The notes: a model not told the origin generated them from the sequence alone. 64,000 bases of DNA from an uncultured Alphaproteobacteria bacterium (GCA_951812775.1 OX638326.1:2241391-2305390), one strand, 5' to 3'. Counted from the stretch's first letter, positions 7,640 through 53,042 are shown. A program made the numbers and translations.

Positions 7640-8328
7640 CTAATCGAGATAATGTACGTGCTGTTCAACGTGAGCAGCCAAATCCAGCGTATGTTGCCGG
7701 ACCAACGGCTCAGCGAGTTCGGTGTCGCGATTTTCGAGCGCCTCAATGATATTCATATGATCGATGATTGACCGGCTCGCGCGATTATTCTCTCCAATTG
7801 TGCGCACGCGAATTGAGCGCATATGAATGAATAATGTTTCGGTAAGCGAATTCAGCAGTTCGCTCTTACTCAGTTTCAAAATTGCCTGATGAAACTCAAT
7901 ATTGGTGCCAGAATACCCATCGATATTTGCCTGAGGCTTTTCATTTTCAAATGTCGTGAACATTCGTCGTAACCCGGCTATTTCGTCATCGCTGGCATTT
8001 TGCGTTATCAGACGCGCAGCCATGTTTTCCAATGCCGCCCAAACCGTGATCATCTCCAGAATTTCTGTCTTCGTTTTACGAACCACAAAAACCCCGCGAC
8101 GGGAATGACCCTTACCAATCCTTCTTGGGCCAATCGGGCAAGCGCTTCGCGGACCGGCGTCCGGCTAACTCCAAGGTCTTCAGACAGCAGTCGCTCATCA
8201 AGACGTGGCTCACCATCACCTTCATAGATGTCGATGGTGGTGATCGTCTCTTTAAGCGCCTCATAGGTTCGATCCTTAAGGCTAAAGGAGACGTCTATCG
8301 GCTGAAGATCAAGTCTTACAGTTGCCAA
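7640..8328 (-). pseudogene. GntR/FadR-family (FCD) transcriptional regulator, disrupted by a -1 frameshift in a homopolymer near 8087-8091
   Basis: N-terminal wHTH ORF (8050..8328) and C-terminal FCD ORF (7640..8086) overlap in different frames. Restoring one T in the T5 run (coding strand) gives the expected ...RVIPVAGFFVVRKTKTEILEM... . Confidence 0.7.
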
Positions 8329-8359
8329 GGAATTTCTCGCTCAATTTAACGAAGAAAAA

Positions 8360-8379
8360 TGGTGGTATACCACATACCA
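8360..8379. promoter_or_regulatory. putative GntR/FadR-type operator palindrome (tGGTATACCa) in the divergent oxc / TRAP intergenic region
   Basis: Perfect palindrome TGGTATACCA fits the FadR-family consensus t.GT.N.AC.a. It lies between the divergently transcribed gntR-oxc-frc operon and the TRAP operon. Confidence 0.35.
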
Positions 8380-8407
8380 TAGGAAATCAGCCCATAGGAA
8401 ATCAGCC
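8378..8407. repeat. perfect 15-bp tandem duplication (cataggaaatcagcc x2) in the intergenic region
   Basis: Direct reading of the sequence. Confidence 0.6.
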
Positions 8408-8570
8408 TTCGTCACGCCTAATCGAAGCAATTATGCTGGTTCACCAGTTGAAATTTTTGTGAGATAAAAATCGAGATCAGTGCGTTTCAGCCAAGAAGCT
8501 GATTGTCGGCCTAACCAAGAGTTACTAAGCTTCCAATCCTGTAGTTACAAACCAACTTGGGGGAGACATT

Positions 8571-49533: not shown

Positions 49534-49599
49534 TTTGCCCTGCCCCTATACCGGCGAAACTGCAACGGAAACAATATCGGATGCCGCCACGTTATCTCC

Positions 49600-51594
49600 A
49601 GCGATAGTCGCGATTGTAAAACCAGCGCCGGCGCCGTTACCGTCTGCATCGAATGTCAGCGTGTTATCTGCCTCATTGAAGATGAATGCCGCCTGATTGG
49701 ACGTCGACGCCGTACTGGTACCATTATTGTTGTATCCGCCTGCGTCATTGATCGAGGAAAAATTGACGCCATCGACACCAGAAGCAATCCCGTTGAAGTT
49801 ACCGGTCAGAACCTGGATATCATCATCAGCGGACGAAAAGTCCTGGATGGTATCTCCGCCGTCACTCGTCAGCTCATAATAAGAAATATCGTTCCCGGTA
49901 CCGCCAGTCAGGTCGTCCGCTCCGGCGCCGCCAAACAAAACATCTATCCCGCCGCCGCCATTCAATGTATCGGTCCCCGCCGCACCGCTTAGCGAGTTGG
50001 CATTGCCATCACCTGTTAGCGTATCATTACCCGCGCCACCGGTGAGGTTTTCAATACTGGTATAGCTGTCGCCTGCCGCATCGCCGGTATTGAGCCCGGC
50101 ATTGGCAAGATTAGCGGTTACCGCCGTACTTCCAGTGTACGAGGCTGTATCGGTTCCACTGCCGCCGGGCAGCGAGTCACCGCCCGCACCGCCAATGAGC
50201 GTGTCATCTCCACCAATCGCAATGATCGTGTCGTTACCCGCCAATCCAGTCAGAACGTTATTACCGCTATTGCCGGTCAAAACATTGGCGTCAGAACTGC
50301 CGGTTCCATCGATGTTATTGCTCCCGGTCAACGTCATACTTTCGACATTTGTACCGACGAGAGAATAGGTCGCGGAGCTTTGGATTCCATCATTGGTAGC
50401 ACCGGAATCGTTCACCATATCATTTACATTATCGACGACATAAGTATCGGCACCCGCACCGCCATCCATGGTGTTTTCACCGGCACCGCCATCAATCGTG
50501 TTATTGTTAGCGTCGCCGGTGAGAATGTCGTTCCCAGAACTACCCGTCAGATTCAAAATATTTGCGTAGGTGTCGCCAGCGGCATCGCCCAGATTGTTCA
50601 AAGCATTCGATAGATCGGCGGTCACTGCCGTACTACCCGCGTAGGATGCGGTGTTGGTACCTGTCCCACCATTTAGTGTATCGGCACCGGCACCACCGAT
50701 AAGCGTGTCATTGCCCGCACCGGTTAGCGTGTCATCACCGGCACCACCGGTCAGGTTCTGAATATTGGTATAGCTGTCACCCGCGGCATCGCCGGTATTA
50801 TTGCCCGCATTGGAAAGATCAGCTGTAACCGCCGCACTTCCTGCGTAGGAGGCCGTGTTGGTCCCGGTACCGCCATCCAGTGCATCTCCGCCTGCACCGC
50901 CGATGAGCGTGTCATCGCCGGCTCCGCCAGTCAGCGTATCCGCACCACCTGCCCCGTCCAAAATATTGTTGCCGCTATTGCCTATAATGGTGTTGGCGTC
51001 CGCGTTTCCGGTCCCGTCGATATTACCACTGCCCGTAAGCGTCAAATTCTCGACATTGGCCGCCAGCGTATGGGTAATTGAACTGTTGACCTGGTCTGTG
51101 CCTTCACCACCATTTTTTGTAATGGCAAAAACAGCGTTATCTACGGTATAGGTATCGTTCCCTGTTCCCCCAACAAGCGTGTCAAGACCGCCGCCGCCAT
51201 CCAGCGTATCGTTCCCGGCGCCGCCGGTTAGCGTGTTGACCGAGCTGTTGCCCGTCAGTGTGTTGGCATCGGCATTGCCTGTACCATTAATCGCCCCACC
51301 GCTATCCAGTAAGATCAAGTTCTCAACATCAGCGCCCAGTGTGAAGGTGATGGTACTATTGACGGTATCATCCGTGCCACCGCCAAGGCTTTCATTAACC
51401 GTATCGCCGACGTTATCAACGAAATAGGTGTCGTTGCCGGCCCCACCGGTCATACCGTCGGCACCGGTTCCGCCATCTAACCTATCGTTGCCCGCATTGC
51501 CAATCAGCGTGTCATCACCCGAACCACCATTTAGCGTATCGTTGCCTGTACTGGCCGTCAGGGTGTCATCTCCACTGCCACCATTGAGGATCAA
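49600..51594 (-). repeat. coding tandem repeats: RTX GGxGxD nonapeptides plus higher-order ~45- and ~70-aa repeat units
   Basis: The unit [39 protein letters not shown] recurs three times. The unit DTYxVDNVxDxVNExxGGTDxVxSSxTxTL..VENLx[18 protein letters not shown] also recurs three times. Confidence 0.7.
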
Positions 51595-52147
51595 GCGCTT
51601 TCCCGTCGCCGCAGCATCAATTATATCGTCGCCGCCCTCACCATTTACGATGACCGTGTTGTTTGAAATATCTGTGCCGGTGAGATCACCGATTGTTATG
51701 TCATCCCCGGCAGACCCCAGGGTGAGATCAAGGGTTTCAATCCCATCAAGCTTAATTGTTCCACCGCCGGTGATAGACAGGACGACTTCGCCATTCGCAT
51801 TTGGTCCAATTGAAATAGTATTAGGCGCGGATGCATTACCGGCGATGAAGGCGGTATCCGCTCAGCCGATCCGGCGATTGAAAGTATCTCTCCGGCGCCA
51901 GGAAAACTAATCCGCGGGATACTGCCGATATCAATCGGCGCATTTGGATCAACGGTTCCAGTATCCTCGTTATTGTCGGAGGAATCCTGATTATCTCGAT
52001 CAATCGGCGTCGTGACGGGCTGAGGCCCCTGTGATGGCAGCGGCACAAAACCATCCAGCGACGCAACCTGCGCCGGTGGCAGAAAAGAAAGATCAGGGGC
52101 CAGCGAGGCGCCGGGGCTGCCTTCAGTACCATCGGTGGTTTGCGGTG

Positions 52148-52202
52148 TAATGAAAGGTCAACACCCTGATTCACCCACCTAGTGTATTTTATATCCCTAA
52201 AC
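52148..52202. mobile_element. 55-bp insertion inside the adhesin gene, identical (as reverse complement) to 54951..55005 upstream of the IS1-like transposase
   Basis: Perfect 55/55 inverted identity. Deleting the segment restores the adhesin reading frame across the junction. Confidence 0.6.
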
Positions 52203-53042
52203 CGAACAATTCAACAAACTCGGCGAAGTCCGGCTTGGCGACTTCAACCGGTGGGCGGAACAGGCTGAAGACCTTCGCCGTGGCAAACTCATCCTGCAGA
52301 ACGATGGTGGCTCCCGCCGTTAAAACGCCCGTAAAGCCAAGCGTGCTGTCCGGATTCCGCAGCAGCGTAAAGACGTTCTCAACAGCTTCCGCCGCCGCGC
52401 GGCCAGCGACACGGCCATTATTGACCTGGAGTGTGGCCACCGGCGTACGAACGATTGCGCCGGGTTCGCCGGAGAAACTTTCGCTGCGATGAGAAAACCC
52501 GAACCGTCCATGCAGAACGAAATATACCGGCTGAGGCGTCTGATCAGGGCCGGTCGGCGCAACTGACTCGACCAGCATGCGGCCTTTGCCGCCAAGAAAG
52601 AATTCAGAGTTATTGGAAAAATCAACCGACACCTGAGACCCGTCGCGTGTCGCCAGAATATCGCCGCGATAGATTGGAATATCCGATGTTAGCAAGATTG
52701 TACTGTCATCAACACGCGTCACCACCGCATCGCCCGTTACGGACTTCACCATCCCCACCGGGGCGGGTGGTGCCTGTGCCAGTTCCTTAGGCGCAGCGGG
52801 GCCCGGCGACGTATTTTGCGCTATCGCGGAACTCTCAGAAGTTGATGGAGGGGTTGATGCCATACGGTACCTTCACCGTGAAAAAGCAAACTCTTAAATT
52901 GGTGGGAAACCGCTCCTTGGTTTACCCGGTAAATCTGCGGCACCTTCCCCCTGAAAAGGCCCGCACCGCTGATTCAAATCCTGGTGGAAACTATCCGGTC
53001 CGGAGCGCGAGCCCAGAACCGGATAATTTTCCAAATCAGTCT

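Follow-up and report, generated by a model that had tools for sequence, protein, structure and literature searches.

Bacteria that have recently become restricted to a host or niche, among them Sodalis glossinidius, Mycobacterium leprae, Shigella and Yersinia pestis, pass through an early stage of genome erosion. Their genomes carry many young pseudogenes created by nonsense mutations, small indels, deletions and insertion sequence (IS) transposition; damage falls on accessory, surface and regulatory genes and spares core metabolism, dispensable operons are hit more than once, deletions outnumber insertions and related lineages repeatedly lose the same modules. Pseudogenes and IS elements of sponge-associated bacteria are the subject of discussion in PMC8225149, PMC12388028 and PMC9600693. 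Here we describe a 64-kb stretch of DNA (the window) from the genome of an uncultured alphaproteobacterium (GCA_951812775.1, OX638326.1:2241391-2305390), in which some 16 lesions disrupt 11 genes and which resembles the known cases in each of these respects. It differs from them in that the genome is not small, the window being 64 kb of 4.15 Mb, and in that host restriction is suggested here by where relatives were found. The second described counterpart is the artefactual pseudogene of long-read assemblies (PMC8011154; PMC11017572), which the window resembles in its single long contig, in four single-base indels in short runs and in broken genes that are otherwise conserved, but from which it departs in that runs of at least six bases are unaffected, most lesions are of other types and the lesions track functional modules. 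We conclude that most of the lesions are probably real mutations, recent in evolutionary terms, that have inactivated accessory genes. The process is ordinary early genome erosion, of a kind known in host-associated bacteria; relaxed selection, and a link to a host-associated lifestyle, are what we infer to lie behind it.

The window (~53% G+C, roughly 50 genes) encodes oxc and frc, two tripartite ATP-independent periplasmic (TRAP) transporters, tcuA, hyuAB, a type I secretion system (T1SS) cluster and pgk-gap-tkt, as assigned with Pfam. It comes from a single-contig assembly, presumably of long-read origin. The organism is an alphaproteobacterium whose closest relatives derive from sponge metagenomes, and the nearest relatives used for comparison were all metagenome-derived. 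The closest DNA found (86–89% nucleotide identity, with synteny over 4.3–17 kb) belongs to assemblies labelled ROBB21 (L086–L090), which, from that label alone, we take to come probably from a coral-reef sponge study (PMC8163846). Contigs from the sponge Mycale hentscheli (L001, L091 and L092; 74–80% nucleotide identity) are syntenic across window positions 32.8–54 kb, the metagenome-assembled genome ME_XS_2303_bin_60 (L002 and L085) covers 24.4–43.3 kb and L080 covers 11.7–18.8 kb. L003 and L070 are more distant; the label of the latter, FRAM18, may denote a seawater metagenome-assembled genome, a presumption from the unchecked label alone. A metagenome scan yielded just the M. hentscheli contigs already in hand, and three loci found through TcuA (L082–L084) had no synteny with the window and were uninformative.

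Disrupted genes in the window

About one gene in five is broken. The 10–11 broken genes of ~50 exceed a background of 3–5% (binomial P 2e-6 to 1e-4, a rough value because the background is assumed). The lesions comprise six in-frame stops (one TAG in a Rieske oxygenase gene, two in a TolC-like gene, a TGA in a methyltransferase gene, a TAA in an adhesin gene and a TAA at 58253), four single-base indels (in the genes for a GntR-type regulator, the TRAP binding protein DctP2, the T1SS ABC transporter and the adhesin), a 4-nt tandem duplication in a kinase gene, deletions of ~20 (adhesin), 25 (ABC transporter) and 554 nt (matA), and the interruption of a TPR-GT41 gene by an IS5-family element flanked by a target-site duplication. 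Deletions outnumber insertions by six to three, which fits the deletional bias known for bacterial pseudogenes. An intact single-frame orthologue is present in at least one relative for all 11 broken genes.

Every gene named as damaged in an earlier note on this DNA is indeed disrupted and has an intact orthologue in a relative, and the four in-frame stops that it listed (Rieske, TolC-like twice, methyltransferase) were borne out. Its list was short by the IS in the TPR-GT41 gene, the adhesin TAA and ~20-nt deletion, and the TAA at 58253. The seven single-nucleotide frameshifts that it proposed fall into four true single-base events (GntR, DctP2, ABC and adhesin) and three larger ones: the matA junction is an internal deletion, 25 nt are missing at the ABC site described as ggga(c)ccggga, and the kinase shift is a tandem duplication. 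The GntR shift had been placed in a T5 run and lies instead in the adjacent C run.

Eight lesions fall in the 9.3-kb block that holds the secretion system and its adhesin. The HlyD-family membrane-fusion protein of this T1SS (42248–43564, minus strand; Pfam) is intact at 438 amino acids and 88% identical to that of L001 over its full length. The adjoining ABC transporter gene (43561–45307, minus) encodes 592 amino acids in L001 and is spread over three frames in the window, with its domains found in three open reading frames (ORFs) by Pfam and the frame changes also seen with tblastn. Its first lesion is a −1 change, CTGGAC to CTGAC, within 44324–44335 (about 44329). The second, within 43981–43994, has removed 25 nt, that is, the eight residues VRENIVRG and one further nucleotide; these residues are conserved in 14 homologues (L001 and 13 others), and the loss adjoins a RENIV direct repeat. 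The gene for the TolC-like outer-membrane protein (45416–46774, plus) contains in-frame TAG codons at 46244–46246 and 46325–46327, where the 453-amino-acid L001 protein has Arg (CGA) and Trp (TGG); 26 homologues were compared.

The hybrid histidine kinase (46758–49533, minus; HisKA-HATPase-REC-Hpt) carries a 4-nt TTTC tandem duplication within 47594–47610, identified by three-frame comparison with the 957-amino-acid L001 protein; its domains lie in two frames according to both Pfam and tblastn. In the RTX-repeat T1SS adhesin gene (49546–52863, minus; HemolysinCabind by Pfam), a TAA at 52189–52191 is followed just downstream by a deletion of ~20 nt (about 52150–52190), and a −1 change lies at about 51862. 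The segment between these shifts (51867–52148) differs in frame from both flanks (tblastn frames −2/−3/−2), and the ORF at 52189–52863 is the adhesin N-terminus, severed by the TAA and the ~20-nt deletion. The relative L092 has the adhesin as one 1,535-amino-acid ORF at 5380–9987. The RTX body itself (49546–51858, compared with 117–3911 of L001) is ~420 residues shorter in the window; the tblastn hits overlap, which suggests in-frame variation in repeat number, and this difference was excluded from the lesion count.

The gene matA (41507–42251, plus), for malonyl-CoA decarboxylase, has a 554-bp internal deletion at 42042/42043, through which the greater part of the catalytic domain is lost and the reading frame is shifted. 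Relatives encode 432 amino acids, of which residues 1–178 and 357–432 lie in different frames by tblastn; Pfam finds MCD_N and merely profile positions 210–252 of MCD. Alignment to L001 and L002 places CCGC/CCAT microhomology at the breakpoint. The gene for the TRAP solute-binding protein DctP2 (37616–38708, plus; 363 amino acids in L001) has a +1 insertion in GCCCAAAAAGGGCGG (38510–38524), within which C3, A5 and G3 runs are indistinguishable as the site; the frame passes from 2 to 3 in tblastn, and a three-way DNA alignment backs the insertion.

Towards the 5' end, the TPR and GT41 glycosyltransferase gene (12068–15478, minus) is interrupted by an IS5-family element of ~1.28 kb (13797–15080, plus) with higher G+C and a 383-codon open frame containing DUF772 and DDE_Tnp_1 (Pfam), which matches annotated IS5 family transposases in blastn. 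The element has imperfect terminal inverted repeats and is bordered by a target duplication of 3–5 bp (CAGG/CAGGC, plus strand). The TPR and Glyco_transf_41 domains are recovered by Pfam as two pieces, the L086 gene is a single 723-amino-acid ORF, and alignment shows the target sequence uninterrupted in L086 and L080. The neighbouring class I S-adenosylmethionine-dependent methyltransferase gene (11482–12075, minus) has an in-frame TGA at 11686–11688, past which translation continues; the L086 gene is intact (197 amino acids), and the position is Arg in relatives (AGG in L086, CGG in L080). SelA and SelB are encoded near tcuA in a distant relative (L082/L083, 15820–19741; TcuA 88% identical), and selenocysteine machinery is thus present in the wider group; the TGA of the window aligns to Arg, not to Cys or selenocysteine.

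The GntR/FadR-type regulator gene (7640–8328, minus) has lost one nucleotide, C4 to C3, at 8101–8103, and its HTH and FCD domains fall in separate frames (Pfam). The rejoined protein of 229 amino acids matches many 229-amino-acid homologues, including that of L086, from end to end. All of these homologues read VIPRRGVFVV (L086/L087 DNA ATTCCCCGC, window ATTCCCGTC), which places the shift outside the adjacent T5. The VanA-like Rieske oxygenase gene (25551–26573, minus) has an in-frame TAG at codon 18 (26520–26522), reading ACC TAG GAG where L085 has ACC CTG GAG (Leu) and others have Gln or Arg; its relatives are of 340–341 amino acids (341 in P0121/L085), and homologues of 340–345 amino acids carry L, Q, A, R or E at the stop position.

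Beyond the interval treated in the earlier note, a hypothetical gene (57731–58522, plus; ~263 amino acids) has an in-frame TAA at 58253–58255. Its homologues (206–439 amino acids) run ~85 amino acids past the N-terminal ORF, through the stop point, and a downstream 88-amino-acid ORF aligns to precisely that continuation (E 6e-23 and 2e-24).

Two nearby segments are described for completeness. The ~3.25 kb at 53995–57247 contain an IS1-family transposase gene (54019–54903), a HigB-like toxin gene, an HTH/M78-peptidase (HigA/ImmA-like) gene and a hypothetical ORF. They are absent from L091, where ~20 bp separate the counterpart of 57248–57675 from the alignment that covers the OmpA-like gene, and the block looks like a window-specific mobile insertion. 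The region at 56950–59110 is low in G+C (48–49%); its non-coding sequence has many long homopolymers, and its small ORFs lack a family match. A Pfam search of the small ORFs at 56.9–59.1 kb returned nothing informative, and the region is possibly a mobile-element remnant beside pgk.

Mutation and sequencing error

Our account of the alternatives, which stands under ALTERNATIVES, takes in recoding, phase variation, wholesale artefact and a mixture of real and spurious lesions. Several points weigh against reading the lesions as genuine. The single contig implies a long-read assembly, and many database pseudogenes, including those with internal stops, are assembly artefacts (Cooley & Wright, PMC11017572). 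A same-species assembly or reads that might confirm the sites were sought, and none was found. The context shared by the amber stops, described below, could be a methylation-motif base-calling artefact. The dN/dS comparison proposed in the earlier note was run and gave no elevation: dN/dS of the broken genes was 0.02–0.11, like that of intact neighbours, at dS of 0.5 to saturated. Amino-acid changes unique to the window also showed no excess over those unique to a relative in the GT41 or methyltransferase gene (25 versus 30 and 1 versus 3). Both rate tests have low power at these distances, and very young pseudogenes and errors alike predict no acceleration. Finally, neither a per-gene multi-hit test (P = 0.46) nor gene-level co-location (P = 0.23) was significant.

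It might be held that essentially every lesion arose in the assembly or consensus of a long-read metagenome of low coverage and that the genes are intact in the organism, as would suit the frequency of spurious pseudogenes in public assemblies (PMC11017572) and the unremarkable substitution rate of the broken genes. Six of the ~16 lesions, however, are hard ones that base-calling cannot produce, among them the IS with its target duplication, the 554-, 25- and ~20-nt deletions and, less certainly, the 4-nt duplication; transposition with target duplication and deletions that end in microhomology bear the mark of mutation rather than of base-calling. The lesions are also clustered, concentrating in 42–52.2 kb (scan-statistic P ~0.003–0.005), the same modules are lost in relatives, and reading frames are error-free throughout the intact genes (~41.6 kb), which contain 26 homopolymers of at least six bases. 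We therefore regard wholesale artefact as remote. The singleton residues counted in Gap and Pgk were so few that a substitution error of 0.3% could be neither seen nor excluded.

Homopolymer errors in long reads rise with run length and are blind to gene function. Of 39 coding homopolymers of at least six bases in the window, including the 26 in intact genes, none carries an indel, and homopolymer error is for that reason a poor fit. The single-base indels all lie at runs of at most five bases: C4 to C3, GG to G, one of the C3/A5/G3 runs, and one non-run site. The stops argue in the same direction. Long-read consensus error is dominated by indels, mainly within homopolymers (PMC8011154). Between 1 in 31 and 1 in 39 random substitutions in these genes would create a stop, so that six stops would need ~200 substitution errors (roughly 0.35%) set against four indels; the observed ratio is the reverse of the indel-dominated profile, and the stops are thus unlikely to be errors. 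The earlier note was fair in keeping homopolymer error as an alternative, in that individual single-base indels are possibly homopolymer or consensus errors.

A compromise, which we consider unlikely, is that the large lesions are real while most soft ones (the four single-base indels and some stops, above all the isolated ones) are uncorrected long-read consensus errors, possibly linked to a methylated CCWGG-like motif. The long-read, single-contig source favours it, as do single-base indels in short runs (C4 to C3, GG to G, C3/A5/G3), the isolated lesions (GntR, DctP2, Rieske and the gene at 58253) that have no second lesion nearby, and the known behaviour of nanopore reads, which show a bias between G and A and motif-linked errors, including at GCTG, CTG and TTYTTT k-mers. 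Yet soft lesions follow hard ones: operons that hold hard lesions make up 22% of the coding DNA and contain six of the ten potential-error lesions (P ~0.01), a density per kb ~5-fold higher than elsewhere. Long homopolymers are untouched, the ratio of stops to indels is wrong for random long-read error, and nonsense and frameshift lesions of the same kind occur in the same module in L080.

The stops and shifts might instead be decoded, through codon reassignment, selenocysteine or pyrrolysine insertion, programmed frameshifting or phase variation, leaving the genes functional. In favour of this, half of the six stops are TAG codons with a common context, and the two adhesin shifts total −21 nt and restore the frame. 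Against this, genes in the window end in TAA (23), TAG (14) and TGA (10), as the earlier note had argued in setting reassignment aside, and the residues of relatives at the stops are Leu/Gln, Arg and Trp, neither one consistent residue nor a stop. Relatives are in one frame at every shift site, where the window offers at most (TTTC)2 or runs of five or fewer bases and no long repeat tract, and the 554- and 25-nt deletions take out conserved catalytic sequence. No tRNA genes or recoding machinery were found in the window. Reassignment of stop codons is excluded on this sequence evidence, and we give decoding in any form a negligible chance.

A further possibility is that the lesions are real but divided among co-existing strains, so that no cell carries them all. 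The close relatives are all metagenome-derived, and the genome itself may be a metagenome-assembled one. Several lesions within one gene, as in the ABC, TolC and adhesin genes, are most simply explained by linkage, however, and a mixed-strain consensus appears very improbable.

Parallel loss in relatives and the age of the lesions

Relatives have lost the same modules independently. The T1SS ABC–TolC–kinase–adhesin block is deleted in L002, L003 and L070, with three different end points and a truncated HlyD left each time: in L002 (8984–11265) the deletion runs from OmpA to HlyD residue 92, in L003 (591–3455) adhesin residue 153 is joined to HlyD residue 28, and in L070 (10001–10162) HlyD residues 388–441 alone remain. 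Among the relatives compared, the block is intact solely in the M. hentscheli genome. The segment with DctPQM2 and the dioxygenase (window 37.6–41.4 kb) is missing from L070 as well. In L080 (3369–5884) a separate 1-nt frameshift breaks the TPR-GT41 gene, and two codons of the methyltransferase gene, at other positions than the TGA of the window, have become in-frame stops (CAA to TAA). These lesions are independent of the IS and TGA of the window, and both genes are intact in L086. A split hyuA in L085 was considered as a pseudogene and rejected, the split being a 100-N scaffold gap.

Genuine mutation, the reading that we prefer and that the earlier note had leaned towards as ongoing pseudogenisation, is thus supported by lesion spectrum, homopolymers, co-location and parallel loss. 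Under it, selection would be relaxed on whole modules, namely the T1SS with its RTX adhesin and adjacent hybrid kinase, and the TPR-GT41/methyltransferase pair, as well as on malonyl-CoA decarboxylase, the Rieske oxygenase, one TRAP binding protein and one GntR regulator. A dispensable module would then collect ordinary mutations: nonsense substitutions (C to T and G to A), indels from slippage, deletions at microhomology and IS insertions. Relaxed selection acting by module would account for eight lesions in the secretion block and none in neighbouring housekeeping genes, which, as the earlier note had said, are clean, with full-length Pfam coverage and lengths equal to those in relatives, as in the other unbroken genes. 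Sister lineages have carried the same loss through by outright deletion; the window would show it at an early stage, after several hits.

The absence of rate acceleration in the broken genes indicates that the lesions are much younger than the splits from these relatives. Very roughly, eight lesions in the 9.3-kb block would correspond to ~0.3–0.8% neutral divergence since constraint was lost, a figure that combines the 1-in-31–39 ratio with an assumed ratio of indels to substitutions.

Context of the amber stops and implications

All three in-frame TAGs (26520–26522, 46244–46246 and 46325–46327) lie in C-TAG-G, which in the Rieske gene forms part of the palindrome CCTAGG, and a CCTGG is the site of the single-base deletion in the ABC gene (44324–44335). 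Of the sites at which a TAG could arise, ~10% share the C-TAG-G context, so three of three gives P ~0.001, a post hoc value. This counts in favour of motif-linked base-calling error among the soft lesions; on the other side, 130 CCWGG sites are intact and the other CTAGG sites show no pattern of conversion relative to relatives. Widespread conversion of CCWGG to CTAGG was likewise rejected, since those other CTAGG sites prove to be either variable positions or the natural stops of genes.

A mutational origin for the pattern is possible in the form of a Dcm-like hot spot of 5-methylcytosine deamination. In the classical lacI work, amber hot spots reportedly arose from deamination of 5-methylcytosine at Dcm sites, CCAGG becoming CTAGG. 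The three TAGs here share that C-TAG-G context, and two (Rieske and the first in TolC) could stem from CAG in CCAGG. The second TolC TAG, unlike those hot spots, most likely goes back to a TGG codon, whose GCTGGG context does not match CCWGG; the window also contains no cognate methyltransferase gene, and CCWGG is mildly depleted in it (observed/expected ~0.76). A fuller scenario, in which the T1SS–RTX adhesin–kinase and GT41–methyltransferase modules are recurrently lost across a largely sponge-associated clade, caught here mid-process, with ambers arising at a methylated CCAGG/CCTGG-like motif, strikes us as quite unlikely. If true, a resident cytosine methyltransferase would steer which genes die first.

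For annotation, about a fifth of the genes here merit a pseudogene label, including the secretion and adhesin system, malonyl-CoA decarboxylase and a regulator, and metabolic or host-interaction inference from this genome should not count these broken genes. The window also serves as a worked case in which real pseudogenes are told apart from long-read artefacts by lesion spectrum, a homopolymer census, the occurrence of soft lesions alongside hard ones and the parallel losses in relatives. The independent loss of the same surface and secretion modules in sister lineages implies that these modules are dispensable in the clade.

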